Shown: piece after piece, positions 3,887 through 24,874 of the stretch | Position numbering within the stretch: the stretch's first letter is position 1 | Layout: the number at the start of each line of letters is the position of its first letter | NCBI RefSeq assembly: GCF_051307035.1 | Contig: NZ_CP195536.1 | Location: 1,380,001 to 1,412,000, forward strand | DNA from: Psychrobacter sp. DM4 | GTDB lineage: Bacteria > Pseudomonadota > Gammaproteobacteria > Pseudomonadales > Moraxellaceae | Direction of reading: 5' to 3' | Length of the DNA stretch: 32,000 nucleotides | Translations under genes and position numbers: made by a program | The notes under the pieces: generated by a model | Seen by the model: the letters and a program-made list of their open reading frames with translations, nothing else | What the model was told of the DNA's origin: nothing | Database searches by the model: none

Positions 3887-4025
3887 CTCATAAGTCACCT
3901 ATGCGGTGATGAAGGATGTAAACAGACTAGACAGTCATTTTAAAGATTTCTAAGCCACCTATGCGGTGGTGAAGTATTTTTTGACCGTATTATGACCCGT
4001 ATTTATTTTCTAAGCCACCTATGCG
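3887..4025 (-). CRISPR. residual type I-F CRISPR array: 2 spacers, 2 full repeats and 19 nt of a third repeat
   Basis: Repeats start at 3887, 3947 and 4007 with an exact 60-nt period (28+32). The + strand reads TTTCTAAGCCACCTATGCGGTGGTGAAG, so the sense strand is CTTCACCACCGCATAGGTGGCTTAGAAA (hairpin CCACC-GCATA-GGTGG, CTTAGAAA handle), which is I-F-like. Spacers are 3915-3946 and 3975-4006. The repeat at 4007 stops matching after nt 19 (4025). Confidence 0.85.
4019..4025. repeat. left copy of the 7-nt junction core CTATGCG (attL side)
   Basis: It is identical to 24859-24865 and corresponds to repeat positions 13-19 (loop plus closing base pair). Confidence 0.75.
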
Positions 4026-4088
4026 TTATATCTAGTAGATAGCATATAAATAAAATACAAGCTATATATTTATAGGTTCTTAGAGATA

Positions 4089-4129
4089 AATAGTTTTTAT
4101 ATATATAATATATATGTATAAAAACTATT
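4089..4129. repeat. 13-bp perfect inverted repeat in the AT-rich left terminus of the island
   Basis: AATAGTTTTTATA (4089-4101) and TATAAAAACTATT (4117-4129) are separated by 15 nt of alternating AT. Function is unknown; an operator for the downstream gene pair or an accessory recombinase site are possibilities. Confidence 0.35.
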
Positions 4130-4342
4130 CACTCAGTGTATGATTTGCAAATCATGGCTTATCATAGCGATAACAAAATACGTAAAGCTCTGTGTATCTA
4201 ACCATCACCTATAATTGTTTATATGAAACATTGTTTAGTATTCATGATTAACGTATATTGACCAAATATTTTAAAAAAGAACATTTTGAATAGTAGAGAT
4301 TTTAGTTGGTTTGCCAGTACTATAGAGAGAGGTAAGGTCACT

Positions 4343-6256
4343 ATGATTTTAAAAAAAATGCGCTTATCTAATTTCCAATCCTTCGGTGAAGAAACAACAG
4401 AGATACAACTTGATAAAATAACTTATTTAATCGGCCCTAATGGTTCTGGAAAAACAGCTGTATTACAAGCACTTTGTAAAATGTTTTCTGTTGACCCGTC
4501 AATACGGAGATTAAAAAAGTCCGATTTTCATGTTTCTCATAATGAATCTGAAATTCCTGATGAAAGGAAGCTTTGGATAGAAGCAGATTTTGAGTTACCC
4601 GAAGCATCTGATTCTTCAGATCATACATCAACTACTATTCCGCCTATGTTTAATCATATGAGACTTAGTAGTATTACAGGACTTCCTATTATAAGATATC
4701 GGCTTGAAGCCACTATGGGAATAGATGGTGATATTGATGATCCAATATTACTATATGTCTTAGAGTTTGATCATATAGGTAATCCGACAAATACAAGTAG
4801 AGTATCTCGCTCAGATAGAAATCAAATTCAGATCCATTATTTACCTGCTAAACGTGATCCTTCTGAGCATGTCGCTTTTAGTACGAATGCCTTACTTGGA
4901 CGCTTACTAAGATCAGTAAACTGGTCGAATGAGCGGGAGCAAATCAAGACACTTACAGATGAAATTAGTAATAGCTTGTCTAAAAACAGTTCTGTAGATT
5001 TAGTAAGTTCTACACTTAAAGACGTATGGAAAAACTTGCACAAAGGAAATTATTTTACTGATCCTAAAATTAATTTCTCTAATTCTGAAATCGAAGCTTT
5101 GCTTCGCCATATGTCTGTCTCCTTCTCTCCTGGTCATGATCAAAACGACGTGGATTTCTCACAGCTCAGTGATGGTCAGAAGTCTATGCTTTATTTATCT
5201 TTAGTACTTACTTCTCAAGCTGTTGGAAGAAAAGTATTAAGTGGAGATGATGCTACCTTCGATCCTGATAAACTTAATCCTCCTATATTTACTATTGTAG
5301 CTCTTGAGGAGCCTGAAAATAGCCTATCACCTCACTTTCTTGGCAGAATTGTAAGCTCATTAAACAGGTTGACGAATGGAGCTGATGCTCAAGCATTGAT
5401 AGCCACACATGCGCCTTCTATATTAAAAAGAGTAGAACCTGAGAATATACGTTATTTAAGACTTGGAATAGATAGACAAACTAAGATTAGCTACATCACA
5501 TTACCAGACAAGTCTGATGAAGCCCATAAATTTGTAAGACAAGCGGTGCAAGCATATCCTGAAATATATTTTTCAAGACTAGTCATTCTTGGAGAAGGCG
5601 ATAGTGAGGAAATTGTTATTCCAAGACTACTACAGGCTAAAGGTATCCCAGCTGACGAATTTGCAATTACTATTGCACCATTAGGCGGGAGACATGTAAA
5701 TCACTTTTGGAGACTTCTTACAGGACTGAATATCCCTCACGTTACTCTCCTTGATTTAGATATAGCTCGGTATCATGGAGGTTGGGGAAGAATTAAATAC
5801 GTTAATGATCAACTTGCAAAATATACGCCAAGTAAAGTATTGCCACAAGATTTTGGTATACCAAGCTGGAATGATGTGACTGAGAAAGTTAGAAACTATC
5901 CAAACTATATTGAAGAGCTTGAAAAAAGAGGTGTTTTTTTCTCATCTCCATTAGATTTAGATTTTTCAATGTTGAAAGGATTTCCACAAGCCTTTCGTGC
6001 TGAAAATGAAATTTGCGATGACTCAACATTTAAAGCCGTTTTAGGTAAAGCCCACTTTGATCGCTTTCAATATACTGATGATGAACAACTATTATTTAGT
6101 CGTTACCATAAAAAGTTCAATTTAGGTAGTAAGCCAGCAAATCATATTGAAGCGCTAGCAAATCTATTAGACACAGATATTCTAAATAACATGCCCGAAT
6201 CTTATTCTAGAATGATCGATGCAACTGAACGCTTAATTAATGAGCTACCTGAATGA
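4343..6256 (+). CDS. gajA: OLD-family ATP-dependent nuclease (ABC-type ATPase + TOPRIM), Gabija GajA-like
   Basis: Motifs: Walker A LIGPNGSGKT, Q-loop/signature region QLSDGQKSM, Walker B ALEEPENSLSPH, C-terminal TOPRIM LVILGEGDSEEIVIP and LLDLD. The start was set at ATG 4343 (MILKKMRLSNF), preceded by GAGAGAGG. It is stop/start coupled (ATGA) to a UvrD helicase gene, which is the class-2 OLD/Gabija architecture. Confidence 0.75.
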   Translation: MILKKMRLSNFQSFGEETTEIQLDKITYLIGPNGSGKTAVLQALCKMFSVDPSIRRLKKSDFHVSHNESEIPDERKLWIEADFELPEASDSSDHTSTTIPPMFNHMRLSSITGLPIIRYRLEATMGIDGDIDDPILLYVLEFDHIGNPTNTSRVSRSDRNQIQIHYLPAKRDPSEHVAFSTNALLGRLLRSVNWSNEREQIKTLTDEISNSLSKNSSVDLVSSTLKDVWKNLHKGNYFTDPKINFSNSEIEALLRHMSVSFSPGHDQNDVDFSQLSDGQKSMLYLSLVLTSQAVGRKVLSGDDATFDPDKLNPPIFTIVALEEPENSLSPHFLGRIVSSLNRLTNGADAQALIATHAPSILKRVEPENIRYLRLGIDRQTKISYITLPDKSDEAHKFVRQAVQAYPEIYFSRLVILGEGDSEEIVIPRLLQAKGIPADEFAITIAPLGGRHVNHFWRLLTGLNIPHVTLLDLDIARYHGGWGRIKYVNDQLAKYTPSKVLPQDFGIPSWNDVTEKVRNYPNYIEELEKRGVFFSSPLDLDFSMLKGFPQAFRAENEICDDSTFKAVLGKAHFDRFQYTDDEQLLFSRYHKKFNLGSKPANHIEALANLLDTDILNNMPESYSRMIDATERLINELPE

Positions 6257-7896
6257 TTTCCACTTATGAATGGAAGCCAGCTAATGGTCTTATATTAGAA
6301 CCTAATGCTATGGCTGTAGTTACATCCACTAAAAAATGTTATGCATTGACCGCAGGACCTGGTGCTGGAAAAACTGAAATGTTAGCACAAAGAGCTGACT
6401 TTCTTCTAAAGACACAAGCTTGTCGATATCCTAAAAGAATATTAGCAATATCTTTTAAAGTCGATGCTAGCAAAAATTTAAAAGAAAGGGTCATAAAACG
6501 TTGCGGTAGTAGTCTAGCCACAAGGTTTGATAGTTATACCTTTCATGCGTTTGCTAAAAAAATTATTGACCGTTTTAGAATAGTTTTAACTGGTCAAGAA
6601 GCGCTAGATTTTGACTATCAAATTGGTGAAAGAAGGGTTCACCGGAAGCAGATAACTTTTAATGACTTAGTTCCATTTGCCATTACTATTTTAGAAAGCT
6701 CAGAGATAGTAAGAAATATAATTAAGAGCACATATACTGATGTTTTCCTCGATGAATTTCAGGATTGCACTACTTTACAATATAAACTTATTAAGCTGGC
6801 TTTCTTAAATACTAGCGTTCGAATAGTATCAGTAGGTGATAGCAAGCAAAGAATAATGGGTTGGGCTGGCGCTCTTGAAGGTATATTTAAGTACTATACT
6901 GATGATTTTTCAGCTATTTCATTAGTTTTATATAGAAACTTTCGCTCTAAGCCTAGATTGCTTAGATTACAAAATGAAATTATACGCATTCTTGAACCAG
7001 ACTCGGTAATGCCTGAAGCTTTGATTGCTGGTAATGAAGGTGAGGTTTCCATACAGTCATTTGCTGATGCAAAGCTTGAAGCTACATACTTAGCAAGTAA
7101 AATACAGCATTGGCTTCAAGTAGAGAAAATTCCTGCTTCTGAGATAGCTATTCTTGTATCTAAACAGATAGACTTATATGCTTGGAGCTTAATGAATGAG
7201 TTGAATACCCTAAATATACCTTTTCGTAATGAACAGCAATTACAGGATTTAAGCAGTGAGCCTATAGCTCAATTATTTGTTGACTTTTTAATGTGTATTT
7301 ATAGCCCCAATGAGCCCGATTCTTGGACAAGACTCAACGAAACAATATCACTCTTTGATAATGAGAACCAATCCAGTCAGACTTTAGAAATAAGCAGATA
7401 CATTCAAAATGAATGGAGACTTTTTAAGTCAACTAAAGACTACTCAAAATGGTGGGAAAACGTTCGTTTTTTATTGAAGACTTTAGGAGTTCAAAGATTA
7501 ATAACATTATCTCCATCTTATGAGTCAACTGATTATCTGTATAAGCTCATTATCGATTTTAAGAATGAAATTGAAAGGACAATGATATCAGCATCAAACT
7601 TAATTAAAGCATTACTCAGTTTTTCTGGAGATGACGCTATTAGACTGCTAACAATTCATAAAAGTAAAGGTTTGGAGTTTGATACAGTCGTTATTATGGC
7701 TGTTGAGCAAGAGATATTTTTTGGAAATGTAAATGATGAAAGATGTGCTTTCTTTGTAGGAGTTTCACGAGCTAAACAAAGATTACTTTTGACACATGTA
7801 AGTAGACGTGAAGTTCCTCCTAGTCATTTTAAAAGATGGGATGTACGGAGAACACCACATCATGAGTTCTTAAGTTACTGTAGATTAGTATATTAG
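6253..7896 (+). CDS. gajB: UvrD/PcrA/Rep-type superfamily-1 helicase, Gabija GajB-like
   Basis: Helicase motifs: AGPGAGKTEML (I), DEFQD (II), RNFRS (IV), IHKSKGLEFDTVVI (V), VGVSRAK (VI). Its start overlaps the upstream stop codon (ATGA at 6253-6256). Confidence 0.75.
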   Translation: MISTYEWKPANGLILEPNAMAVVTSTKKCYALTAGPGAGKTEMLAQRADFLLKTQACRYPKRILAISFKVDASKNLKERVIKRCGSSLATRFDSYTFHAFAKKIIDRFRIVLTGQEALDFDYQIGERRVHRKQITFNDLVPFAITILESSEIVRNIIKSTYTDVFLDEFQDCTTLQYKLIKLAFLNTSVRIVSVGDSKQRIMGWAGALEGIFKYYTDDFSAISLVLYRNFRSKPRLLRLQNEIIRILEPDSVMPEALIAGNEGEVSIQSFADAKLEATYLASKIQHWLQVEKIPASEIAILVSKQIDLYAWSLMNELNTLNIPFRNEQQLQDLSSEPIAQLFVDFLMCIYSPNEPDSWTRLNETISLFDNENQSSQTLEISRYIQNEWRLFKSTKDYSKWWENVRFLLKTLGVQRLITLSPSYESTDYLYKLIIDFKNEIERTMISASNLIKALLSFSGDDAIRLLTIHKSKGLEFDTVVIMAVEQEIFFGNVNDERCAFFVGVSRAKQRLLLTHVSRREVPPSHFKRWDVRRTPHHEFLSYCRLVY

Positions 7897-7916
7897 ACGT
7901 ATACCCCAGCATAATC

Positions 7917-7982
7917 AGCTATTTAAGCCCTAAAACGTATTAATAGACTACTGAAAACAGACCCCTAAGATGGAACCACTTA
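7917..7982 (+). repeat. copy A of a ~66-bp direct repeat (partner at 11944-12008)
   Basis: AGCTATTTAAGCCCTAAAACGTATTAATAGACTACTGAAAACAGAC...ATGGAACCACTTA aligns with the partner at roughly 80% identity by eye, with one indel. Confidence 0.55.
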
Positions 7983-8358
7983 GAAAACTGTAACACTTGT
8001 AGGATTTTTCTCGATGCAAAACATTAAAAAACAGACCACAATATCGAGCCTAGACTTTAATAATCTACGCAAACTCATGGATGCCTTAATTAATCTAAAA
8101 AAATTGATAATCTGGATTCTCTTGATGCATATTACAGCTTTGAATGGCAAGAAGATGCTAATGAGATAATTGATGGTATCAATAAGTATGTAGAGCAAAC
8201 GTTAGCTAGCCTAGAGGTAGAGAGCTACCAAAATTCTCACTGTAGTCTGATCTCTTTGAGAATATATCTACAGGATTTAAGGGTACAATAGATGGAATCA
8301 CTAACGATGCCATTTTAACGAATGATGATAATGAAAAATTCACTTGGCTACCATTGAC

Positions 8359-8382
8359 GAGCGCATCCCAGATTCTGTGTAA
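8359..8382. repeat. solo terminal-inverted-repeat-like sequence, same family as 10504 and 19824
   Basis: GAGCGCATCCCAGATTCTGTGTAA compares with GAGACCATCCCAGATTCTGTGTAA at 10504. Confidence 0.45.
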
Positions 8383-8740
8383 CTGCTATTTAGATTTGTA
8401 ACTATCCCCTAAAATAGCAAAGCTCTTCTTTGTACATGTTTTGCCGACGTGTATAACTGCGCGATAGTGCTTGTCTGTTTGATTTGTTTTCTATGAATAC
8501 AGCTGAGACCCATATATATAGCATTGCTAATTTGATACTCGTTGTCGAGAAAATTTTGGTAAAACGATGCTAATGCTTCGTAAAATCACACCTAAACATT
8601 GTCAGATATTAGAGATGTAATGCTGCAAAGCTTTTTTGAGTACGCTTATAATCATAGAATGTTATTCTACTAATTGATATCGCGCGCGTGGGTAAAATAG
8701 AATTATGCCGCCAACGGCACAACCTACAAGGATCTAACAT

Positions 8741-9181
8741 ATGAAACCGACAGTCGAATACACCGAAGATAAAATTTTTATTCATCATGCGATGGGCACT
8801 GTGTCGATGAATCGCACTACTAATGAAGCGCGCGATAAGGCGATACTTGCAGATAATCTCGCGATGTTTGAGCAGGACGATTTTTACAAGTCGGAAGAAT
8901 TCACTGCTGAATTCAATCAGCATCTGGAAACGGTAATTCTTGCTACGCGTGGCGGTGGTGCTGGTGCAGTAGCGTGTCGCGACACGCTGTTGAGCTTATA
9001 TAACGGCTATGCATACAAAGCTAATCTGTCGAAATGGTATAGCTTAGACAGCACAAAACGTAAGGCTCTGCTCTTCGTGCTAGAGCATCAAACGACTTGC
9101 AATAGAAAAGACATCGACTTATATTTGCCCGAATATAAGATCGACTTCACGCGTATGAAAGAAGAAGTTTCGCACGACTAG
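8741..9181 (+). CDS. hypothetical protein (146 aa)
   Basis: It has an ATG with an AAGGA RBS and non-repetitive composition. I recognise no motif, and it sits in a decayed region. Confidence 0.45.
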   Translation: MKPTVEYTEDKIFIHHAMGTVSMNRTTNEARDKAILADNLAMFEQDDFYKSEEFTAEFNQHLETVILATRGGGAGAVACRDTLLSLYNGYAYKANLSKWYSLDSTKRKALLFVLEHQTTCNRKDIDLYLPEYKIDFTRMKEEVSHD

Positions 9182-9509
9182 GGATGTTGTATATGCCCGA
9201 ATATAAGGCTTTAAATAATCAGTACCAACAGCTATCAGCCAATGATCATACAAAGCGAGAGTTAAAATAGGTTTTAAAGTTTTAGAAGACACATAAGATA
9301 GCTCAAACATTGCAAGATTTGTTATCTAGTCACTCTCCAGAGAGCCAAGCTTGTACTCAAGAAATAGCGGACTGCTTACTATTAGCTATTTCCAAGAAAA
9401 AAAGTATTAAAAACACTAAATGACGCAAAAATCGAGAGCCCAAAAAATAATGAGAAATGATTAATGGGCAACTATTGCAGATTTTGCGACAGTTAAACCT
9501 TCTTCTAAA

Positions 9510-9542
9510 AGGCAGTTGTCGCAAAAATTGCGACAACTGCCT
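9510..9542. promoter_or_regulatory. 33-bp perfect palindrome, candidate operator upstream of the antitoxin-like gene
   Basis: AGGCAGTTGTCGCAA-AAA-TTGCGACAACTGCCT ends 24 nt before the ATG at 9566. A half-site-like TTTTGCGACAGTT lies at 9482-9494. Confidence 0.45.
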
Positions 9543-9565
9543 CAACTTATGAAATGGAAAGAAAA

Positions 9566-9789
9566 ATGTCTGATGACCCCCTATCCTTGTAAGTAAAGCT
9601 GAAATTGCGAAGCGCCGGCGCATCACTGCAGATACGCTTGCTAGTTTTGCAGTTGATAACATCCCCGTGAATCCTAAGATTCAATATATCTTTGACGACT
9701 TTGTAGAAGGTAAGATTGCGACCAGTGCAGAAGTGAAAGCTCTTTTGCTCAATCATTATTCTAAAATTGCAAAGCTATCTAAGCCCTGA
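9566..9789 (+). pseudogene. VbhA-like (Fic-associated) antitoxin gene broken by a frameshift in a C5 tract
   Basis: ATG 9566 gives MSDDPLSL then a stop. One extra C in the run 9577-9581 would give a 74-aa product ...SKAEIAKRRRITADTLASFAVDNIPVNPKIQYIFDDFVEGKIATSAEVKALLLNHY, which resembles VbhA-type antitoxins from memory. No Fic toxin gene follows. Confidence 0.4.
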
Positions 9790-9900
9790 TAGTTTAAATG
9801 CATGCGCTTTTAGTCTCCACTGGTTATGCTTCTGCTTTACTAATAACAATTCAAAATCGAGGATTTACAGTCGGAGCCTGCAGGCGTAAAAAAGTTAAAA

Positions 9901-9971
9901 ACACTAAATGACGCAGGAACGTATTCTGTTTTTAGAGCGTCTATTGCTCCTCTGAATTTTATTGAGTATAC
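9901..9971 (+). repeat. copy 1 of a 71-bp direct repeat
   Basis: ACACTAAATGACGCAGGAACGTATTCTGTTTTTAGAGCGTCTATTGCTCCTCTGAATTTTATTGAGTATAC matches 10258-10328 at 70/71. Confidence 0.8.
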
Positions 9972-10257
9972 ATAGATGCATATTTTGCTAATTTACATAA
10001 TGTACAAGCATTGCGAGCACTACATTTTAATTTGATAAAGTCGCTTTTTTCTACACCATAATAATAATATTTACAATTAAAACAGAGGTTTGCGGATAGA
10101 ATCATAGTTGTACAGAGTTTGAAAAGTCCTTAGTCGGTAGGAATATTACCGCAGCTTGGTAGGAGTTTGTTCACGGCTATATCTTATAAGTGTGCTCTCT
10201 AGAATCTTGTAAACCTTTCGTGCGTATTCAGCGTTTAATTATCATTTGTACGCTATC

Positions 10258-10328
10258 ACACTAAATGACGCAGGAACGTATTCTGTTTTTAGAGCGTCTA
10301 TTGCTCTTCTGAATTTTATTGAGTATAC
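10258..10328 (+). repeat. copy 2 of the 71-bp direct repeat
   Basis: It has one mismatch to 9901-9971. A third partial copy (AAAAAGTATTAAAAACACTAAATGACGCA) is at about 9398-9427. Confidence 0.8.
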
Positions 10329-10503
10329 CTATGGCTAACCAATCAGGTGCTTTCATTGGTTCGGTTCCCTAGTGAGGACTTGAATCTTTGGCTGTGAGCT
10401 AATGGTATTAAGGTTTCAACTTGCTGAGATAGCCACAGTGTACTTCATGATGTACTTACCATAGATATTCTATCTATGATCGGTGCGCTAGTGAGGACTT
10501 GAA

Positions 10504-10571
10504 GAGACCATCCCAGATTCTGTGTAACTGACGTTTAGATTAAATACTTACACAAAATTTAGGAAGGTCTC
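10504..10571. mobile_element. 68-bp MITE-like element or empty IS ends
   Basis: The 24-nt inverted termini are GAGACCATCCCAGATTCTGTGTAA and the reverse complement of TTACACAAAATTTAGGAAGGTCTC. There is no coding capacity. Confidence 0.5.
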
Positions 10572-10944
10572 TGAAAATTAACCACCTGACACAACTCGTC
10601 ACCTACTAACAGATCTTGGCGGTCATAAAAGTTGCCCCAACGCTTATAATTATTATCCGTTCTCGACTCAGGGTTATAAGTAATGGCGATGTAGGTTTGA
10701 ATTTTATTAGTGTCCTAAATTAGTTGACCACCACCAGATTCTTATCAAAGACTTCATCATCTATTATTCGCCAAACGGCAACTTGCTGATGGTCTTTGGT
10801 GGTGACTAGATTTAAAGTTTGTTCAATCATTGCTTGAGGTCTCATATCCTTATGATGTTTATTTGCTTCAAACCCAGTTACTTTACACTTAGCGGTTTAA
10901 TTAAGCTACTTACTTGAGCTATTTGCTTCAGTTATTAGGCTTGG

Positions 10945-11778
10945 CTACTTACTCAACTTCAATATTCTAAAGGCGCCCTGAATAACTAAAGCAAATACGA
11001 TGCTACCAATAATCAAATCAGGCGTACTAGAGTGTAACCAATTAACCAAAATCCCTGCAACAATTACCCCTAAATTGATAATCACATCGTTTGAAGTGAA
11101 AATCATACTGGCTTGCATATGGGCTTCTTCTTTTTTGCTTTTCGATTTTTGTAGTAAATAGAGGCAAATCGAGTTTGCAATTAGCGCAAGAATCGATATG
11201 ACTATCATGGTAGAAAAGTCAGGTAACTGCTCATTGCCAAAGAAACGTCTTAGTACTTCTAAAAAACCAAGAATCGCTAGCGTAATTTGAAAATATCCGG
11301 CAATTCTAGCAATCCGTTTTTTCTTAATGACCGTTCCACCGACCGCAAATAAGCTAATTCCGTACACGAAGCTATCTGCTAACATATCTAAGCTGTCGGC
11401 GACCAACCCCATCGAACGAGAAATCAGTCCCGTGCTCATTTCAATAATAAAGAAAGCAAAGTTAATGACCAGCACTATCCATAGTAGCTTTCTTTGCTCA
11501 GCATCTTTTTTGTGACTAGAATCAGCATCAATTTTAAAATTATTGTTGGGATCAGAGGGGTCAATGGTTTCGGTCGAGAGTAGGGTGTCTCCTAATTTTA
11601 GGTCATGAATAGCAGTCTCTATCCCTTCTATATTGTCATGATGAAACACAGTTAATTGACGGTTAGGAATGTCGAACTCAAGATGTTTAATATTCGAGTG
11701 GCCCTCTAATTTCATTCGGATTAGGTTTTCCTCCGAAGGGCAGTCCATCTTCGATATTTTAAAAGTTGTTTTATTCAT
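10945..11778 (-). CDS. cation-efflux (CDF-type) transporter with an N-terminal heavy-metal-associated-like domain
   Basis: The N-terminus FKISKMDCPSEENLIRMKLEG resembles HMA, followed by CDF-like TM helices with ADSLDMLADS and repeated hydrophobic segments. The start was set at ATG 11778 (MNKTTF). The ORF-track start at 11922 is a TTG that adds a 48-aa hydrophobic extension. Confidence 0.7.
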   Translation of the reverse strand: MNKTTFKISKMDCPSEENLIRMKLEGHSNIKHLEFDIPNRQLTVFHHDNIEGIETAIHDLKLGDTLLSTETIDPSDPNNNFKIDADSSHKKDAEQRKLLWIVLVINFAFFIIEMSTGLISRSMGLVADSLDMLADSFVYGISLFAVGGTVIKKKRIARIAGYFQITLAILGFLEVLRRFFGNEQLPDFSTMIVISILALIANSICLYLLQKSKSKKEEAHMQASMIFTSNDVIINLGVIVAGILVNWLHSSTPDLIIGSIVFALVIQGAFRILKLSK

Positions 11779-11943
11779 AGCTACATTTATATCCGGGTGG
11801 TGGTTCAAAAAGTAGGCTGGAAAAAAACAGGCTGAGAAATTGATAAATAGTGAAATGCAAATGACACTATACATCAAATGCCCAGCCTGTCTAAGTGACA
11901 ATATAAAGAAAAATGGTTTCAAAAGCTATACCCTAGCGGAACT

Positions 11944-12008
11944 AGCTATTTAACCCTTCAAACTTATTATCAGACTACTTAAAACAGACTTTAATATGGA
12001 ACCATTTA
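11944..12008 (+). repeat. copy B of the ~66-bp direct repeat (partner at 7917-7982)
   Basis: AGCTATTTAACCCTTCAAACTTATTATCAGACTACTTAAAACAGAC...ATGGAACCATTTA lies about 190 bp upstream of the serine recombinase gene. Confidence 0.55.
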
Positions 12009-12196
12009 TAACAGACTTTTGGATTATAGGACAGGTTACTACGCTTTTTCCCTATCATTAGCCTATACCCAAAACATAAAACCTCTAAACAATAACTTAT
12101 CTATCATTAGACTTGTTTATATTATTAAATGATAGTAATATCTTGCTATTATCAATGGACATTAATTATTAAGTATAAATGATAAAAAGAGGCGTT

Positions 12197-12787: not shown

Positions 12788-12831
12788 ACGACACTATGTC
12801 GGAGGGTCTCCAAACCCGGTACGGTTCACTC

Positions 12832-12861
12832 AAAAAATAGGAGCTTAGAGCTCCCATTTTT
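12832..12861. terminator. bidirectional hairpin terminator between convergent genes
   Basis: AAAAAATAGGAGCT-TAG-AGCTCCCATTTTT has an A-run on one side and a T-run on the other. Confidence 0.6.
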
Positions 12862-12924
12862 ATGTTAGCTTTCTAAGTCTCTATGTTAATTTGAAGAATA
12901 CTTCATCATAACGTCCGAATACAG

Positions 12925-13209: not shown

Positions 13210-13401
13210 TATTTCACCTTGAATTTGTTTTAGGGCTTGTCCCTATTTTAAAAATGGCGATAAAAATGAGATAAATTAAAGGCAAACAAGGAAAATAACG
13301 CAGGTAATATCAAGATATTGGTCAGCTATTTGACACCGTTTGCCAAAGATTTAGCCATTTTTAGCCCATTTAGTCATAAACGCTTGAATTAGGGACACGC
13401 C

Positions 13402-14696: not shown

Positions 14697-14697
14697 G

Positions 14698-15481: not shown

Positions 15482-15615
15482 ACAAGTAACCTTCAACCTA
15501 TTTGTCAATCATATTTGAGGGTTAAGTATTACAGCCTTGTTAGGTATAATAAATGAATAATATTATCTTTCAGAATTCCTATTTACGGAATAATTACTAT
15601 AACACAGGATTGGAC

Positions 15616-16515: not shown

Positions 16516-16529
16516 ATTAGATAAGACCA

Positions 16530-17546: not shown

Positions 17547-18531
17547 CGATAACTACCTTAATATTGGCAGAGCGATCTTGAACAGCATCATGAGCCTCAA
17601 TCGCTTGGTCTAGAGTAAAATGACGAGGATCAACAATAGCACGCAGTTTACCTTCCTCAACGAGACGAGTCGCGGTCTTAAGGATATCACCATGATGAGA
17701 ACGGCGATTGCCTGTTAACGTCGGCATTAGGACGAATACGCCAGACACTGTGGCACACCGTAGAGATGAATTCGCTAAATTATGATTGCCAAATGCAGCA
17801 CAGCTGGTGATGTGGCCATAGTGAGTCGTCATGGAAAGTGACGCTTCGAGTACTGGACCACCCACAGTGTCGTAAACAATGTTAAAACCTTGACCCTCAG
17901 GGCTTGCAGCAATAATGTCATCGGAAGATGCTGTCGTGTAATCGAGAGGTGTTGCACCGAGTTCTGAAATCAGTGATTGATCAGCTGTACGACCAGTCGC
18001 CCAAACATTTGCATCAAGTGCTTTTGCAAGCTGAACAACCATATAACCAACGCCACCAGCACCACCCTGAACCAGTACAGTTTGTCCTGGTTGGACCTTA
18101 GCATTATCCACTAAACCTTCCCAAGCGGTGAGGAACGTCAATGGTAGTACTGCTGCCTCGCGCATAGAGATATTCCGTGGCTTTAATGCGATCAGATCAG
18201 CATCTGCTACAACATATTCTGCTAAAGATCCTTGAAGACCACGAACGCCACCTATCAGACCGTAAACTTCATCTCCGACGTTGAAGTGGGTGACACCTTC
18301 ACCAACAGCAGTTACAACTCCAGCCATATCCGTTCCCAACACGGCAGGAAGCTCTGGCATAGCATATGTTGCTTCGCCAAGACGAATTTTATAATCAATA
18401 GGGTTTACACCACTGGCATGAATACGTACTAGAACTTGCCCAGCCTCTGGTTGAGGTATAGGGAGTTCTACACGTTTAAATTCATGATCACCAAAATTTT
18501 CTAGGATAAGCGCATTCATCATCTTATTCAT
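17536..18531 (-). CDS. zinc-binding dehydrogenase / quinone oxidoreductase (MDR family)
   Basis: Motifs: GVNPIDYKIRLG and VQGGAGGVGYMVVQLAK. Confidence 0.85.
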   Translation of the reverse strand: MNKMMNALILENFGDHEFKRVELPIPQPEAGQVLVRIHASGVNPIDYKIRLGEATYAMPELPAVLGTDMAGVVTAVGEGVTHFNVGDEVYGLIGGVRGLQGSLAEYVVADADLIALKPRNISMREAAVLPLTFLTAWEGLVDNAKVQPGQTVLVQGGAGGVGYMVVQLAKALDANVWATGRTADQSLISELGATPLDYTTASSDDIIAASPEGQGFNIVYDTVGGPVLEASLSMTTHYGHITSCAAFGNHNLANSSLRCATVSGVFVLMPTLTGNRRSHHGDILKTATRLVEEGKLRAIVDPRHFTLDQAIEAHDAVQDRSANIKVVIDVI

Positions 18532-19823: not shown

Positions 19824-19897
19824 GGAGAGCATCCTATATTCTGTGTAACAGCTATGTGGCTTTCATCAATAATTACACAAAATGTAGGATGCTCTCC
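19824..19897. mobile_element. 74-bp MITE-like element, same family as 10504-10571
   Basis: The inverted termini are GGAGAGCATCCTATATTCTGTGTAA and the reverse complement of TTACACAAAATGTAGGATGCTCTCC. Confidence 0.5.
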
Positions 19898-19970
19898 GTT
19901 TTGCGCTTTATCTGTAAAAACTGTCACTGAATAAGATGATTTATTTGGAAGATATAAAATTTATTTACTA

Positions 19971-20642
19971 TTAGACTTGAGCTAATACTTTTTGTATAGC
20001 TAAAACAAAACCAGTTTTAAATAATGTTCGACCAACTTCATCTTTAATTGCACCATACTTTGATACAGTCCAGCCTAGCTTATTAATTTTCTCTTCCTTA
20101 ATAGCATCCTGTAGGGCTTCAATATCACTATCTAACAGCATCCCACTTAATGAAGGTAATACTTGCACAACTTGTGAATTTTGATTTATAGGAGCTATCT
20201 TATTAGGACGCATATCTATGTTCACCTCAATGTTCTGTTTAAGGATGCGATTTTCTGACTTTAATTTATTTTTTTCTGCAATAATTTGACCAAAAACAGC
20301 TCGCATTGCAGGGTCAGACAGATATTTTAATAACTCCATATCTGATGCGACATCATATTTCCTAGATTGAGGAGAGGGTGGTTTTTTCATGGTAGTATTG
20401 GCTTTAGTTGCCCAAGCGTCAATCAGAAGCCTGTAGTGACTACCTGACTTATTACGAATGCTAACAGTGCTGATACCACCACTAGCTTTCGACAGTCTTC
20501 CAATATGAGCAATAGAATAATCGTGCTCATCTTTATTAAATTCAGTTTCTAGTAAAGTATTCAGATTGTCTAACGAATCTTTCGTACGTTGACTTTTACC
20601 TTCCTTTAAATCATCTAAAATTATGTCGATATTGATATCCAT
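19971..20642 (-). CDS. 223-aa accessory protein of the recombinase trio (TnpC-like position; possibly GmtX-type)
   Basis: It is the third gene of the operon, 24 nt after the 861-aa gene, with a strong GAGAGGAG RBS. It has a coiled-coil-like centre (AEKNKLKSENRILKQNIE) and no catalytic motif that I recognise. Confidence 0.55.
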   Translation of the reverse strand: MDINIDIILDDLKEGKSQRTKDSLDNLNTLLETEFNKDEHDYSIAHIGRLSKASGGISTVSIRNKSGSHYRLLIDAWATKANTTMKKPPSPQSRKYDVASDMELLKYLSDPAMRAVFGQIIAEKNKLKSENRILKQNIEVNIDMRPNKIAPINQNSQVVQVLPSLSGMLLDSDIEALQDAIKEEKINKLGWTVSKYGAIKDEVGRTLFKTGFVLAIQKVLAQV

Positions 20643-20665
20643 AAGATATTTCTCCTCTCATTTAC

Positions 20666-23251
20666 TTAGGTTAGGGATTTAATATTGATATAATTAATAG
20701 GCTGCTTAACGGTTTCCTGTAATACACTCATACTGTCATCTAAGAGTTTACTATCTTGCATAAACTCTTCTAACTCAATATAGTTTGCCACTTTACTAAG
20801 GCCATCTAACTTGTCTTTTGAATTAACTTGTAATGCCATTTGTCTAACCATAGCGTTCGCAGCAATAAGTTGCTGATTCTTATTTAAACTTAGAAACGGT
20901 GGCATATAACCCTGACGTATCATCATTCGACTGATAATTTGAGTCATATCTTGAATGATTGAAGTCTTCTTAACATCATCAAGCATATCTGGATAAATTT
21001 CTGCATCATCGCAAATTAAGGATAGTTGTAGCAACTCAGATTTTGTTTCTATAAATCCAATTCTGATATCGTTCTTGGAACCAACTGCTACTATTTTATT
21101 TTTATGATCATCTTTATCCCGTTCTTGCTCAATTTCAACCAAACGATAAATGAGATTGAGAGTTGCAATTAAGTCCTTAGTATACTCATCTGCTTCTAAC
21201 GATTGCTTCTCACGTCGTCGCTGCAATTCTTGTAATTTGTTATGATGAGTAAAAGGCTTACCTTTAGCTTCTGCTTCGTACTTTATTTCCTCAATATTTT
21301 CTATCTCTCCCTCTAGTTCTATAGCTAAATTTGCAGCTTCAGAGGCTTTGTAACTCATAAAGTTCAAGTGTGCAGTGAGTGCTGGTAAGTATTGAGCGTC
21401 AGTGATAAACCAGCGACAGCGAACGCAATTTTCAGGACCATGAGGCACAACTCCGTAAATTTTTCGCGAAACAACACTTGAGTCCTTAATAAGCTCTCCA
21501 CCGTTCCAGCACCCTGCTACAGTTCCAACTTCATCAGATTTAACTGTATTGCCACCAACTAGACATAGACCATGATGTCGTTTTTCCCATCCTATAGGAT
21601 TACGATTAACCAAAGCAGCTTGAATCGAATTATTATCGTGGTAAGCCATTTTACATTCGATCTGACTCATTTCAGCATTCTTAAGAAAAGTTTGAACACT
21701 TTTTTTTGACACATCTTCAAGACGATCTTCCGCCTCAATCATTTTTTCTTTCATGACTGCTGGGGTAAGTTTGGCGTAGTAAATAGTCATAAGTAGGCGT
21801 GAGTGACCTGCTAACAGCTTAGAAACCACTGGCAAAGGTAATTTTGCATCCATGATATAACATGTTATGAGGGAGACTCTAAGGCTATGCAGAGGGAACT
21901 CAGTTTTAGTTTTAGTAGTCTTATAACCCTTACCATAATCGTGAACTAGTTTAAAAAATGTACCATCGGATAATGTGTCTCCTGATAGACGAAGATTATC
22001 TTCAAGTTTAGATAGAAGCTTGTACCAAAGAGTTGGAATTGAGGCATCATTGATTGGTTTGCTCCTATCCTCCAAGTCAGTTGCAGTCGCATCACGCATC
22101 AAAAAACAACTATCATTCATTGCATCAAGATATGATTCAGATACTTTACGTTGTGTATGTTTAAGTGTTAATTCATTACAATCTGTAGGCTTACTGATAG
22201 GATTATATTTTTCTTGCCAATTTCTCAATTTTTCCAACCAATATAATACATCTTCGTTCTGCCATGGAATTTCATAGCCTCGCTCTACTTCATCTATGTT
22301 TTGGTCTGCGGTCTTGTTAGTGCTGATGTATAATCCTGTAGACTCCATTTCCATTACATTATTTTTAAACTGACGAAAAACTCCTTTTTTATAATTTCTA
22401 TATGCAAATGAATGCTTAGTATTTCTTATCCATTTGCCATTTTCATAACGCATAGTATCTGCTTCACCTGAGTCCAACATCCTAACTTGATAAGTTCGAA
22501 GAGGCAGATGTAATTTGATGAATAAGCACATTGCGACAACAGGTGACCAAATTTCATAGATAATAATATTTTGCTTGTCTTTTCTAATATTTCTACTACG
22601 CCATATACAGTCGTTATCATTATTATCAATAAGTTTCTGTTCAACTTCAAACCAATTACTATTAGACACTCGTCCTTCATGCGTCAATTTTTCATGTGCC
22701 CATATCCAGTCTTTAAAATCACCCCTAGGTTCAGGGCATAAAATATTGCGAAGGTCGCATATATAACGATAGGGTAAAGGGTTATAAACAGATTCAGTAT
22801 ATTGTTTTTTTCTCTGTTGCTTCTCGAAGGGGTTCGTATATAGCTTAATGACAGACCCATTATCATCTTCTTCACTAAAATGCTCTGTCAACAACCATTC
22901 AATAAAATCAAAAATATGATTCATTAATACTACAGTGGATGAATTATCTGAGCGTTTGGTATTTTCAAATATTGAAGTCTTAAAATCATCAGTTGAGATT
23001 TGCCAACCATTCTGCTTGGCTTCAAAGAATGTAACTATGTCTGACGCCCAAAGTGCATTAGAAGTTAAATAGACGTCAAAAAATATACACAAAGCGTCTA
23101 ATTTAGTGTGTTGCGATGTGTCCTGAGCATTCATCCATTCTTCTGCAAATTCACGCCACGATTCCCAAGCCTTACCATGCCTTTTCGTCAGCCATCCAAG
23201 AGTGAGGTCACTAGTTCTGCCATCGTATTTAGCTTGTACAGTTGCTTTCAT
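20666..23251 (-). CDS. large (861 aa) tyrosine recombinase, second of the trio (Tn554 TnpB-like position; possibly GmtY-type)
   Basis: The candidate catalytic set is R in HLPLRTYQVRML, H-x-x-R in LHSLRVSLI, and H and Y in LAGHSRLLMTIYYAKL. It has long N- and C-terminal extensions. Its start overlaps the upstream gene by 23 nt. Confidence 0.75.
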   Translation of the reverse strand: MKATVQAKYDGRTSDLTLGWLTKRHGKAWESWREFAEEWMNAQDTSQHTKLDALCIFFDVYLTSNALWASDIVTFFEAKQNGWQISTDDFKTSIFENTKRSDNSSTVVLMNHIFDFIEWLLTEHFSEEDDNGSVIKLYTNPFEKQQRKKQYTESVYNPLPYRYICDLRNILCPEPRGDFKDWIWAHEKLTHEGRVSNSNWFEVEQKLIDNNDNDCIWRSRNIRKDKQNIIIYEIWSPVVAMCLFIKLHLPLRTYQVRMLDSGEADTMRYENGKWIRNTKHSFAYRNYKKGVFRQFKNNVMEMESTGLYISTNKTADQNIDEVERGYEIPWQNEDVLYWLEKLRNWQEKYNPISKPTDCNELTLKHTQRKVSESYLDAMNDSCFLMRDATATDLEDRSKPINDASIPTLWYKLLSKLEDNLRLSGDTLSDGTFFKLVHDYGKGYKTTKTKTEFPLHSLRVSLITCYIMDAKLPLPVVSKLLAGHSRLLMTIYYAKLTPAVMKEKMIEAEDRLEDVSKKSVQTFLKNAEMSQIECKMAYHDNNSIQAALVNRNPIGWEKRHHGLCLVGGNTVKSDEVGTVAGCWNGGELIKDSSVVSRKIYGVVPHGPENCVRCRWFITDAQYLPALTAHLNFMSYKASEAANLAIELEGEIENIEEIKYEAEAKGKPFTHHNKLQELQRRREKQSLEADEYTKDLIATLNLIYRLVEIEQERDKDDHKNKIVAVGSKNDIRIGFIETKSELLQLSLICDDAEIYPDMLDDVKKTSIIQDMTQIISRMMIRQGYMPPFLSLNKNQQLIAANAMVRQMALQVNSKDKLDGLSKVANYIELEEFMQDSKLLDDSMSVLQETVKQPINYINIKSLT

Positions 23252-24719
23252 TATTTATCCCTAACCTTGGATTCTTTCCTGTAAATAGTCCACTAGGATC
23301 AATATCATCAAAACCATGGCGCATTAATGCATTCCAGCTCAAGTTATTATTTTGTTTAGAGTCCTCTTTAGAAAGCATAAGTCTTTCTGTAGCATCATTT
23401 AAATCTGCCGTAATTTCGATGGACGTTGGGGTAGTGTAAACAGCTTGCGATTCTATAGATGCATGATGTAAGCACTTCTTAATGACTATCTCTTGTACAC
23501 CTGCGCGACGCAAACGTCTTCCGTAGCTATGACGGTGAGAATGTGGTGATAAACCGTCAGGTTTACTGGGATTAAGACCAATTCGCTTAAGACCTCGATG
23601 ATAACTGTCATGAAAAGCATTTAAAGTATAAGGGTTACCAAGATGACTGTGGTGAAAGCTTACGAAAGCGTAAGGATGATGACGATCAACACTTATTAGA
23701 AGTCGAATATAATCTTGCCAAAGCTTTGCAAATACCTTACCAAAAATTGTAGGGAACCAATGTACTTCAATGTATTCGTCTTTACTATCTGTAACTCTTG
23801 CTTTCCATCCAACACGTTTTTTACCTATTAATTCATTACGGGGACTTAGAGCATATTTTTCTTTTAGGTAAGCAGCTCTAGTGGTCTTTCCAGAGCGTCC
23901 ACGCCACCCATTAGGAGCTTTTCCATCTTCAGGATGATAAATACGAACTTTCACATTATCAGAGTCAAAGGGATCTATAAGAACATCTTCAATCCAAAGG
24001 TGTAAAGCTTCGGACTCTCTTAAACCACCACCGTGTAGAAGTAATAGAATCAGCTGATCACGAATAGCAACCCTAAGGTCTTTTGCACCTCCTAAGCCAT
24101 CAATATAAAAACTTTCGAAATAGTGCTCTGGAAATTCTATCGCTTCTTGTTTTTGCTTACCTAATGAACGTTTACCTTGTACCCTACGAGCATTTCTAGA
24201 GGTGGAATTAATCTGCTTATCTTTAATATGACCTAGAAAATCATACTGATTTTTACGAAACCAAGCTGCGTAATTGAGCCTTTGCGTAACACTATCTGCT
24301 TCAACCATTGGGTTGATTGAATTTAGATTATATTCTTCTACCATCCAATCGGTTAATCTGCTTAAAGCATTTATGTGTAACCTTGCAACCTGCTTACTAC
24401 AAGGTAACCAATATAAGCCTGATGGATCTAAACCTTCTTCATTAATAGTTCCTGTGTACAAGCGACTACTAAATATTTCAAATAAGTTTCCAGGCGACTC
24501 AAAGCCACTTGTATTAGCAGTCATATATTCAATTAGAAGCTGAGTAGCTTTTATATAATTATTGATTGTGGAATGACTCTTACCATCTCTTTTTAACTTT
24601 AATGCATAGTCCATTAATGGTTTTAAGATTTCATTACTGTCACTAATTAGAACAGGAATCTCTGAATAGACTCCCGAATCATCTTGAATTACTTTTGCCC
24701 TAACTCTGACAGTCTTCAT
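23229..24719 (-). CDS. tyrosine recombinase/integrase (496 aa), first of the trio (Tn554 TnpA-like position; possibly GmtZ-type)
   Basis: The catalytic set is R in GGGLRESEALHL, HSHRHSYG (H-x-x-R), and LHHASIESQAVYT (H...Y). It is the gene closest to the island's right junction. Confidence 0.85.
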   Translation of the reverse strand: MKTVRVRAKVIQDDSGVYSEIPVLISDSNEILKPLMDYALKLKRDGKSHSTINNYIKATQLLIEYMTANTSGFESPGNLFEIFSSRLYTGTINEEGLDPSGLYWLPCSKQVARLHINALSRLTDWMVEEYNLNSINPMVEADSVTQRLNYAAWFRKNQYDFLGHIKDKQINSTSRNARRVQGKRSLGKQKQEAIEFPEHYFESFYIDGLGGAKDLRVAIRDQLILLLLHGGGLRESEALHLWIEDVLIDPFDSDNVKVRIYHPEDGKAPNGWRGRSGKTTRAAYLKEKYALSPRNELIGKKRVGWKARVTDSKDEYIEVHWFPTIFGKVFAKLWQDYIRLLISVDRHHPYAFVSFHHSHLGNPYTLNAFHDSYHRGLKRIGLNPSKPDGLSPHSHRHSYGRRLRRAGVQEIVIKKCLHHASIESQAVYTTPTSIEITADLNDATERLMLSKEDSKQNNNLSWNALMRHGFDDIDPSGLFTGKNPRLGINNESNCTS

Positions 24720-24795
24720 GTATTTAACTCTATATGCTTTAAGCTAATCTATATATTATACACTTTTTACTAGAACTAATGTGTTTAATGTTATC

Positions 24796-24822
24796 TAAAA
24801 AAAGACTCTTTAGGAGAGTCTC
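24796..24822 (-). terminator. rho-independent terminator just inside the island's right end, facing incoming leader transcription
   Basis: The minus strand reads AGAGACTCT-CCTAA-AGAGTCT followed by TTTTTTT. Confidence 0.5.
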
Positions 24823-24858
24823 TTATATGTTTTATACACTTATCAGTACTAGTAATAA

Positions 24859-24874
24859 CTATGCGGTGATGAAG
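24859..24874 (-). CRISPR. 5' 16 nt of the leader-proximal CRISPR repeat (the other 19 nt are at 4007-4025)
   Basis: The minus strand reads CTTCATCACCGCATAG, which equals repeat nt 1-16 in the sense orientation with one variant base shared with the repeat at 3887. It is followed by unrelated island DNA. Confidence 0.8.

Follow-up and report, generated by a model that had tools for sequence, protein, structure and literature searches.

The window, that is, the whole 32,000-nucleotide stretch of Psychrobacter sp. DM4 DNA analysed here, holds a type I-F CRISPR-Cas locus with five cas equivalog matches, a leader, 28-nt repeats, 32-nt spacers and a 60-nt period. Direct reading shows that the first (leader-proximal) 28-nt repeat is interrupted by 20,833 bp (4026–24858). 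The features, from the cas genes through the interrupting DNA to the distal end of the array, are as follows.

29454–32000, minus strand: cas3f (Cas2-3), 3' part, running off the window with its frame open to the edge (NCBIfam TIGR02562, 746.9 bits)
27761–29143, minus: csy1/cas8f (NCBIfam TIGR02564, 382.8 bits)
26790–27764, minus: csy2/cas5f (NCBIfam TIGR02565, 319.6 bits)
25674–26705, minus: csy3/cas7f (NCBIfam TIGR02566, 431.1 bits)
25053–25670, minus: cas6f/csy4 (NCBIfam TIGR02563, 162.9 bits)
24875–25052, minus: CRISPR leader, aligning with the leaders of loci L008 and L001 that adjoin intact first repeats
24859–24874, minus: first I-F repeat, 5' part (nt 1–16, CTTCATCACCGCATAG), with the left 7-mer copy at 24859–24865
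4026–24858, minus (strand of the gmt genes): Gamma-Mobile-Trio (GMT) genomic island, 20,833 bp, with boundaries common to relatives
24847–24858, minus: near-end terminal inverted repeat TTATTACTAGTA, with TTATTACTAGT invariant in 13 of 13 aligned relatives
24803–24821, no strand assigned: hairpin then T run (T run on the minus strand), about 40 nt inside the island and facing transcription from the leader
19897–24858, minus: conserved GMT module (blastn identity 90.6% to L001 and 99.9% to L002)
23229–24719, minus: gmtY, tyrosine recombinase (NF040693, 534.2 bits, cut-off 340; PF00589)
20666–23251, minus: gmtZ, Integrase_2-type recombinase (NF047926, 987.3 bits, cut-off 600; PF13009)
19971–20642, minus: gmtX, small partner protein (NF040692, 229.9 bits, cut-off 40)
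10945–18531, no strand assigned: other cargo (Pfam and reading of translations)
4286–7896, plus: Gabija, gajA 4286–6256 and gajB 6253–7896 (PADLOC GajA 1007 bits and GajB 778 bits, both end to end; Pfam)
4026–4037, plus: far-end terminal inverted repeat TTATATCTAGTA (direct reading and the far ends of relatives)
4007–4025, minus: split repeat, 3' part (nt 10–28, CGCATAGGTGGCTTAGAAA), with the right 7-mer copy at 4019–4025
3887–4006, minus: array remainder (spacer 3975–4006, repeat 3947–3974, spacer 3915–3946, degenerate terminal repeat 3887–3914)

A promoter-like site in the leader (TTGTCG-18-TATAAT, consensus scan) ends at 24879. Rfam assigns the repeat to CRISPR-DR4 on the minus strand, and the full repeat at 3947–3974 is the sole match to the 28-mer in the window (0 expected by chance); cas1 lies outside the window.

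On the minus strand, repeat nt 1–16 occupy 24874–24859 and nt 10–28 occupy 4025–4007, with CGCATAG present twice. The corresponding plus-strand letters are CTATGCGGTGATGAAG (24859–24874) and TTTCTAAGCCACCTATGCG (4007–4025), with CTATGCG at 24859–24865 and 4019–4025. The flanks rebuild one repeat with this 7-mer at both junctions (16 + 19 − 7 = 28), as a sequence-only reading of the window had proposed. In a DNA fold, the 7-mer (repeat nt 10–16) comprises the C10–G16 closing pair and the 5-nt loop. The island lies between nt 16 and nt 17, with nt 10–16 on both sides and the hairpin dyad at the centre of the 7-bp duplication; its borders are formed by the stem arms CCAC and GTGG, and insertion between such arms is a mark of GMT islands. 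Just inside the junctions, 4026–4037 (TTATATCTAGTA) and the reverse complement of 24847–24858 (TTATTACTAGTA) are identical at 10 of 12 positions, which bears out the imperfect inverted repeats noted earlier. An alignment of 13 relatives makes the near-end boundary exact, with TTATTACTAGT invariant and the flanks diverging from the next base outward. The edges of the conserved element in relatives match both 4026 and 24858, in agreement with the earlier claim of an integrated island bounded there.

An in silico join of 3940–4025 to 24866–25060 aligns without gaps to the intact first repeat and leader of plasmid pA11BP5 and of Psychrobacter sp. 4Bb, which identifies the split repeat as the leader-proximal one, as had been claimed. 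The plasmid, in which a related leader adjoins an intact first repeat, provides the homologous empty site that the sequence-only reading had suggested searching for. The rebuilt window repeat pairs T6 with G20, a mismatch absent from the intact repeats seen: this pair is C6–G20 in the neighbouring window repeat, and T6–A20 in the window terminal repeat and in all other arrays seen. The two halves, judged from these bases, may therefore not derive from one identical repeat, and rearrangement or mutation after insertion is possible. One such history is that recombination between island copies in two arrays fused the cas–leader side of one to the distal side of the other. It would explain a near half with T6 and a far half with G20 beside an intact C6–G20 repeat and a T6–A20 terminal repeat, in a position that is complementary in every other array examined. 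Two island copies in one cell are expected because GMT transfer is replicative, and I-F arrays with the window-type leader also occur on plasmids. However, one point mutation also yields T6/G20 and a second island copy was not seen, so that we regard this origin as rather unlikely. The register of 16 + 19 − 7 = 28 is expected of any GMT junction pair and thus does not discriminate between the two histories; with a one-repeat origin, an uninterrupted first repeat next to the same two spacers would read CTTCATCACCGCATAGGTGGCTTAGAAA.

The trio at the leader-proximal end of the island is the described GMT system (GmtY, GmtZ and GmtX): its proteins match the Gmt models and no others at family level. 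The two tyrosine recombinases and small partner recognized earlier are thus gmtY, gmtZ and gmtX by NCBIfam equivalogs; the gene content stood, and its status as an unknown module did not, since this is a published system with known insertion between inverted repeats. The genes (24719–19971) are adjacent or overlapping at one island border, with the gmtY start 139 bp from the junction, and the gmtY product is identical to WP_435980587.1 of Psychrobacter sp. DM4. In a Pfam profile search, GmtX yields neither an integrase domain nor any other match, and a recombinase-in-trio (RIT) element, which has three tyrosine recombinase genes, was accordingly rejected. The module 19897–24858 is the only part common to the islands of the window, L001 and L002. 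The cargo beyond 19897 differs: with Gabija in the window, two Pycsar systems in L001/L010, and an MmeI-like enzyme, a helicase and a T5orf172 protein in L002, it shows the variable content with anti-phage systems typical of GMT islands.

Recurrence was assessed in the loci recovered from the GmtY 90% cluster, whose named members are all Psychrobacter. Every recovered locus has the same junctions in one constant orientation, with the gmtY end always toward the leader-proximal repeat half. The near-end junction (repeat nt 1–16 followed by TTATTACTAGTAC) occurs in at least 12 unrelated array contexts, among them repeat 16 of Psychrobacter sp. 4Bb (L001), repeat 2 of a mini-array next to genes of copper homeostasis in P. 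glacincola (L002), repeat 13 (L006/L009), repeat 30 with the loop GCTCA (L010), repeat 4 (L040), repeat 1 with a different leader (L041), repeat 1 with an L001-type leader (L042/L045) and a different I-F repeat, ATTACCCGCCGTATAGGCGGCTTAGAAA (L048); it is also present in L011 and L047. The far-end junction (TACTAGATATAA followed by repeat nt 10–28) occurs in six contexts (the window, L029/56/57, L055, L054, L050–52 and L053). The window is the only sequence with both junctions of one insertion; elsewhere, the two ends were found on separate contigs. No spacers are shared among the window, L001, L002, L008, L009/L006, L010 and L011, and the independence of L029 and L040–L059 was judged from the spacers next to the junction and from the leaders, which vary from one context to the next. 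Further copies of the element thus interrupt I-F repeats at this very nucleotide, the outcome for which the sequence-only reading had proposed to look. The first repeat is a target at three independent loci, but not the sole site, given that repeats 2, 4, 13, 16 and 30 are also used.

Five repeat variants are targeted, with the 7-mers CGCATAG, CGCTCAG and CGTATAG. Both junction types in GCTCA arrays carry CGCTCAG (the L050–53 far ends lie in such arrays), and an identical GmtY protein is found in repeats unlike in stem, loop and 5' arm. The 7-mer is therefore the loop and closing pair, as first described, but not a fixed core of the island, because it tracks the host repeat variant; a classical integrase island with an element-borne core was rejected on the same ground, the same GmtY being flanked by any of the three 7-mers according to the host repeat.

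Psychrobacter and related bacteria can take up DNA by natural transformation, and a single ancient insertion might have spread by homologous recombination together with its half-repeat flanks, for instance after such uptake, without the recombinases choosing repeats. The flanking repeats offer some homology, and the hybrid T6/G20 window repeat hints at recombination. Yet no two contexts have the same adjacent spacers, which leaves a common homology of only 16 and 19 nt, and the junction 7-mer and 5' arm, including ATTACCCGCC, match the host variant. The L001 and L010 islands are 99.9% identical, against only about 80% identity in the matched cas DNA of the two loci. Together with the experiments in which GMT islands insert site-specifically between inverted repeats (bioRxiv 10.1101/2023.03.28.534373), this makes such a spread extremely unlikely.

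Placement or assistance by the CRISPR machinery, either Cas1–Cas2/3 with IHF at the leader–repeat junction or Cas6f, would account for the several accepted repeat variants, with one GmtY in repeats differing in stem, loop and 5' arm, and for the use of repeat 1 in three independent loci. Cas1–Cas2 integration, however, duplicates the whole repeat at its borders, not 7 bp at the dyad, and spacer-like capture of the island was rejected for this reason. Internal repeats up to number 30 are used, as is a mini-array without nearby cas genes. Relatives with 62–79% GmtY identity retain the same island ends at non-CRISPR sites; L007 (79%) lies in the loop of a terminator hairpin, typical GMT behaviour. 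In Vibrio, the trio and a 30-bp site suffice for GMT insertion (bioRxiv 10.1101/2023.03.28.534373). We consider such placement very unlikely.

We conclude, with a probability of roughly 90%, that 4026–24858 is a GMT island in the Psychrobacter sp. DM4 chromosome, and that it belongs to a Psychrobacter lineage that has the type I-F CRISPR repeat as its natural insertion site. That the lineage uses CRISPR repeats as attachment site follows from the insertion nucleotide that close relatives share in many other arrays; from this comparison and from experiments on distant relatives we infer that the island is mobile. The nearly identical islands of unrelated arrays lend indirect support to replicative transfer by way of a gmt-dependent circle. 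In Vibrio, GmtX, GmtY and GmtZ are each required for the circular copy, which inserts replicatively into the spacer between short inverted-repeat arms, and altering that spacer abolishes insertion (bioRxiv 10.1101/2023.03.28.534373). In the proposed mechanism, the two recombinases would cut with a 7-bp stagger symmetric about the hairpin dyad, the half-sites being the stem arms and adjoining repeat sequence, and the island ends TTATATCTAGTA and TTATTACTAGTA would form a matching palindromic site in the circle. Within the 7-mer, the outer CG..AG would be required and the central three bases would be free; the 7-mer itself may be a target-site duplication or a crossover core reset at each transfer. 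About 40 nt into the island, leader transcription would meet the terminator-like hairpin, which compensatory changes preserve in all relatives, and the two remaining spacers would be cut off from their promoter. With the first repeat split, spacer acquisition would probably be blocked. The arrangement of the locus makes it plausible that the orphaned spacers are silenced and that adaptation is lost; the cas genes would remain intact, with a Gabija system delivered beside them.

The Tn554-type elements (tyrosine recombinases TnpA and TnpB with a small TnpC), RIT elements and GInts also insert site-specifically and, like the GMT island, carry more than one tandem tyrosine recombinase gene, with or without a small accessory gene. 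In the profile searches, the trio has no family-level match to them and, as GmtX has no Pfam match, no third recombinase as in RIT elements. With published GMT islands such as VPaI-6 of Vibrio parahaemolyticus (Mahata et al., bioRxiv 10.1101/2023.03.28.534373), the window island shares gmtY-gmtZ-gmtX at one border, defence-rich cargo, insertion between short inverted repeats with apparent spacer duplication, and a lineage-specific site. Dataset S2 of that work lists chiefly terminator-like hairpins, tRNA genes and greB as insertion sites, whereas the Psychrobacter island sits in a multi-copy element belonging to an immune locus, which the insertion splits. CRISPR and Psychrobacter are unmentioned in the text of that paper and in the accessible parts of its supplements, and our literature search found no report in which I-F repeats are the target of GMT or any tyrosine-recombinase island. 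The novelty lies in the target; the GMT class and insertion between inverted repeats were already known.

Streptococcus pyogenes prophages integrate into CRISPR repeats (Varble et al., Nat Microbiol 2021, as cited in PMC11837452), likewise using the repeat as attachment site and thereby interrupting the array. As described in that citation, they are temperate phages with a single integrase, a Gram-positive host and a different CRISPR type, whereas the Psychrobacter island is non-phage, with two recombinases and a partner protein, defence cargo and I-F repeats. For cyanobacterial Tn7-like transposons, too, the repeat is the recognition element, and plasmid and chromosomal arrays are both targets; unlike the GMT island, these minimal elements with little cargo use DDE transposition guided by TnsD, and leave the repeat intact because their insertion point is fixed within the adjacent spacer (PMC11837452).

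More broadly, and only as a doubtful extrapolation, this lineage may be specialised on I-F repeats as a multi-copy landing pad on plasmids and chromosomes, with a leader-proximal bias. Gain of an island would then switch off adaptive immunity (distal crRNAs and spacer uptake) and install innate systems (Gabija, Pycsar) beside cas. If true, recombinases would drive both anti-CRISPR by integration and the physical growth of defence islands; DNA structure imposed at the leader–repeat junction may help in targeting.

The GC content is 32–39% across the Gabija and gmt ends, versus 39–45% in the flanks. Profile matches to gajA begin at residue 20, with homologues of 637 aa. The other cargo includes a CzcD-like cation efflux protein with an HMA domain (10945–11922) and a serine resolvase (12179–12787), both identified by Pfam, and, from reading of the translations, a LysR regulator, an SDR and three quinone-oxidoreductase-like genes (within 10945–18531).

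The first repeat of the type I-F array, adjoining the leader, is split by an island occupying 4026–24858. On the + strand, positions 4007–4025 read TTTCTAAGCCACCTATGCG and continue into TTATATCTAGTAGATAGC, and positions 24847–24858 read TACTAGTAATAA, followed by CTATGCGGTGATGAAG at 24859–24874. The intact repeat, TTTCTAAGCCACCTATGCGGTGGTGAAG, is present as a single copy in the window (3947–3974; 0 expected by chance) and corresponds to CRISPR-DR4 on the minus strand (Rfam). The frame of cas3f stays open up to the window edge.

Organization of the locus
Minus strand: cas3f, csy1, csy2, csy3 and cas6f, in this order (NCBIfam equivalog matches)
Minus strand, after cas6f: leader, 178 nt
Minus strand, after the leader: repeat nt 1–16, insert of 20,833 bp, repeat nt 10–28
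Minus strand, after repeat nt 10–28: spacer, repeat, spacer, degenerate terminal repeat

The duplicated 7-mer, CGCATAG (nt 10–16), comprises the loop GCATA and the closing pair C10–G16 of a 5-bp hairpin in the predicted fold, and the terminal inverted repeats of the island agree at 10 of 12 positions. The sequence-only reading had proposed a split first I-F repeat with a 7-mer duplication and inverted island ends, and this proved right in all details by direct reading, repeat search, Rfam and folding; its interpretation as an integrated island is supported by an empty site, recurrent junctions and a shared boundary. The split repeat carries T6 in its near half (gmtY and leader side) and G20 in its far half. 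The adjacent repeat has the pair C6–G20, and T6–A20 is the pair in the terminal repeat and in every other array; a single point mutation would give the T6/G20 combination, as would recombination between two island copies sitting in different arrays.

The three leader-proximal genes of the island are the Gamma-Mobile-Trio (GMT), a class of element that is already known. The Pfam domains of the trio are Phage_integrase and Integrase_2. The window GmtY is identical to WP_435980587.1 (Psychrobacter sp. DM4); neither Cas6f nor GmtY of the window had an exact match in the contig index, and the GmtY sequence is present in the protein collection.

Trio genes at the leader-proximal end of the island
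GmtY, 534 bits (cut-off 340)
GmtZ, 987 bits (cut-off 600)
GmtX, 230 bits (cut-off 40)

Loci with GmtY relatives were drawn from genomes, metagenomes and exact protein look-up. As anticipated, close homologues are flanked by split I-F repeats, the members of the GmtY 90% cluster sitting at the same repeat nucleotide: repeat nt 1–16 followed by TTATTACTAGTAC was found in every member with upstream DNA available. The contigs of four loci (L043, L044, L046 and L049) begin within the repeat. The 5′ repeat parts used are CTTCATCACCGCATAG, CTTCCTCACCGCATAG, CTTCACCACCGCATAG, CTTCATCACCGCTCAG and ATTACCCGCCGTATAG, the last of which comes from a different I-F repeat, ATTACCCGCCGTATAGGCGGCTTAGAAA.

Repeats occupied at the near end in relatives
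L001, Psychrobacter sp. 4Bb: repeat 16
L002, P. glacincola CCUG 34874: repeat 2, in a mini-array next to copZ, cueR and copA
L006/L009: repeat 13
L010: repeat 30
L011: repeat 11 at least
L040: repeat 4
L041: repeat 1, behind a different leader
L042/L045: repeat 1, behind a leader of the 4Bb type
L047: repeat 6 at least
L048: repeat 4 at least

Repeat 1 is occupied in 3 independent loci of approximately 12 contexts, counted by present repeat positions rather than array lengths at insertion, which hints at a preference for this repeat. The P. glacincola mini-array (L002 9786–9861) has two repeats and no cas genes within 10 kb, indicating that solitary or remnant repeats serve as sites too.

The near-end boundary of the island was borne out by alignment of 13 near ends, which share an invariant TTATTACTAGT and diverge from the next base outward. 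No spacers are shared among the window, L001, L002, the plasmid locus L008, L009/L006, L010 and L011, and among the loci recovered later (L029 and L040–L059) the junction-adjacent spacers and leaders differ between contexts. Over 11.6 kb the islands of L001 and L010 share 99.9% identity; for the matched cas DNA of the two loci the figure is approximately 80%. The spacers of the first set of arrays, those recovered before the later loci, gave no match to the recovered islands, and thus no hint that CRISPR targets the island. Island orientation is identical in all contexts, which implies that an asymmetric cue is required in or around the palindrome. A second CTAGT motif lies approximately 88 nt inside the near end (24749–24771; alignment columns 111–133). 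It forms a direct repeat with the terminal motif, does not vary among the 13 relatives and is a candidate internal recombinase-binding site.

Since 260 bp separate gajA from the far end (Gabija side), the 90% cluster of this gene was used as bait for far-end junctions. Repeat nt 10–28 is joined to TTATATCTAGTAGATAG in six contexts.

Contexts of the far-end junction
The window
L029/L056/L057
L055
L054, in a CTTCCTCACC-type array
L050–52, Psychrobacter sp. NPDC078370 (contig JBNNGR010000014.1), in an array of the GCTCA-loop type, where 23 intact repeats lie on the distal side of the island
L053, in a GCTCA-type array with a different spacer

In the GCTCA arrays, CGCTCAG is found at both junction types, so the 7-mer matches the repeat of the host array. 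Its outer CG..AG is the same in all contexts, and the central three bases are variable. This pattern fits a true duplication of target sequence; it also fits a crossover region in which central heterology is tolerated and which every new target resets.

As judged from the junction positions, the cuts would be offset by 7 bp and placed symmetrically around the hairpin dyad, as in the core site of a tyrosine recombinase whose half-sites are inverted. Joined with one 7-mer between them, the island ends CTACTAGATATAA and TTATTACTAGTAC are predicted to form a palindrome with the same loop. In GMT islands the trio defines one border, and defence systems are abundant in the cargo; the circular form needs all three gmt genes, transfer is replicative, and the site is a spacer between the short inverted repeats of a lineage-specific 30-bp sequence, a change of the spacer abolishing insertion (Mahata et al., bioRxiv 10.1101/2023.03.28.534373). 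By analogy with these Vibrio experiments, we infer that insertion into CRISPR repeats would depend on the trio.

An uninterrupted leader and first repeat, sought in related DNA, is present in both the Psychrobacter plasmid pA11BP5 (NZ_MN657021.1, L008) and strain 4Bb, and the window flanks joined in silico align to both without gaps. The plasmid carries a complete I-F locus with a 24-repeat array, an intact first repeat at the leader and a leader closely resembling that of the window, and plasmid-borne attachment sites therefore exist for these islands. pA11BP5 has a size of 27 kb and is predicted to be non-mobilizable. A megablast search of PLSDB with the GMT module found no such island on plasmids and recovered a homologous leader; the viral contigs scanned for the junction gave no match.

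The leader contains a promoter-like site whose end lies 4 nt ahead of the repeat. Approximately 40 nt inside the island, a hairpin with a T run faces leader transcription and is kept in all relatives via compensatory changes, and no outward promoter-like site was found at the island far end. Given this arrangement, the two remaining spacers are probably cut off from leader transcription. Spacer acquisition at the leader has probably been lost as well, as the first repeat is not intact.

More distant relatives, with 62–79% GmtY identity (Photobacterium and metagenome contigs), keep the island end at non-CRISPR sites, and two Acinetobacter relatives are without the end motif. GmtZ is more divergent than GmtY between lineages. 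The island of locus L007 (79% GmtY identity) lies in a terminator-hairpin loop, GCCCGGAG-7 nt-CTCCGGGC. Its flanking 7-mers are unequal at three positions (CGTTATG and CGCTTCG; 9846–9860 and 17365–17380), whereas the duplications in CRISPR repeats are perfect. The motif CTTTAG adjoins the island end in three otherwise unrelated flanks of 62–76% relatives (L013 115–120, L016 100–105 and L017 9835–9840), which points to a short core, either preferred or carried, in this sub-lineage.

The cargo of the window island includes a complete Gabija pair with end-to-end matches (GajA, 1007 bits; GajB, 778 bits), a CzcD-like transporter and a serine resolvase (gene at 12179–12787; Pfam), and the translations suggest redox genes too. 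GajA homologues with approximately 76% identity have type I restriction-modification genes as neighbours, in defence islands unrelated to this one. The cargo looks mosaic: the region 16000–18000, with quinone-oxidoreductase-like genes, has 44–46% GC, compared with 32–39% at the Gabija and gmt ends. A stretch of approximately 3 kb (7897–10944) has almost no convincing ORF and no Rfam match; its sole family match is a 146-aa DUF7673 protein (8741–9181), which adjoins Gabija in L050 and L051 as well. A search for anti-CRISPR candidates among the small ORFs at 7.9–10.9 kb and 18.5–20 kb gave only poor ORFs.

Only the 5-kb GMT module (19897–24858) is common to the window, L001 and L002, and the cargo differs. 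A second island type (L001 and L009–L011) carries two Pycsar systems, PycC+PycTM and PycC+E2+PycTIR (L010 15631–21479), separated by an IS3-family element. Judged from cyclase-sharing contigs (L019–L022), a Wadjet-like cluster comes next after Pycsar; walking through the cyclase gene towards the far end of the L001/L010 island yielded this further cargo and did not reach the end. In P. glacincola, an IS of approximately 1.3 kb with an rve-type transposase lies inside gmtZ (L002 12113–13387), which is otherwise 99.9% identical to the window gmtZ, and this island copy is probably immobile. It carries a different cargo, encoding a T5orf172 protein, a helicase of the DEAD-box type and an MmeI-like enzyme.

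The sites catalogued in the GMT paper are mostly terminator-like hairpins, tRNA genes and greB, and CRISPR, Psychrobacter and I-F repeat strings have no mention in its text and the accessible portions of its supplements (10.1101/2023.03.28.534373). Precedents are the S. pyogenes prophages that target CRISPR repeats (Varble 2021, as cited in PMC11837452) and cyanobacterial Tn7-like elements, which insert into the spacer adjoining a repeat (PMC11837452). Literature searches on GMT and CRISPR, GmtY, Psychrobacter CRISPR islands and insertion into repeats found no report of such a case. What is new is the I-F repeat as target, the breadth across repeat variants and the recurrence. CRISPR repeats thereby join the known GMT attachment sites, and a Gram-negative tyrosine-recombinase island joins the very short list of mobile elements targeting CRISPR repeats. 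With n+1 site copies per array and I-F arrays on plasmids, the target is harbour and vehicle at once, in agreement with the demonstrated shuttling of GMT islands by plasmids (10.1101/2023.03.28.534373). The landing of Gabija or Pycsar islands within a CRISPR locus offers a specific mechanism by which defence systems come to cluster, and raises the testable question of whether array splitting, above all at repeat 1, is neutral, costly or selected as a shutdown of CRISPR immunity. The accepted repeats, with three 7-mers, two stems and several 5′ arms, constitute a natural specificity map for recombinases recognising a 28-bp hairpin site.

Beyond the array, the window contains degenerate repeat-like units, each followed by a conserved stretch (...TTTCGTTTGAAGTCATAACTTCTGA...TATTTAAAG...).

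Repeat-like units beyond the array
3187–3213
3500–3520
3762–3789
3887–3914

Two of these units lie 125 nt from each other and share 72% identity over 83 nt. The units (3187–3914) were considered as scars of earlier insertions, and this was rejected: both stem arms are kept, and the NPDC078370 array ends likewise, in a similar repeat-like pair, also 125 nt apart, with a similar stretch after it (L050 8099–8260). The units thus appear to belong to a conserved trailer and not to be a scar. Beyond the trailer, L050 encodes a 233-aa ORF and umuDC-like genes (5262–7938), and its positions 1–4861 hold three genes in one orientation, encoding 1112 aa (weak Phage_integrase match), 832 aa and 169 aa; together they may form a further recombinase module of several genes near the CRISPR locus.
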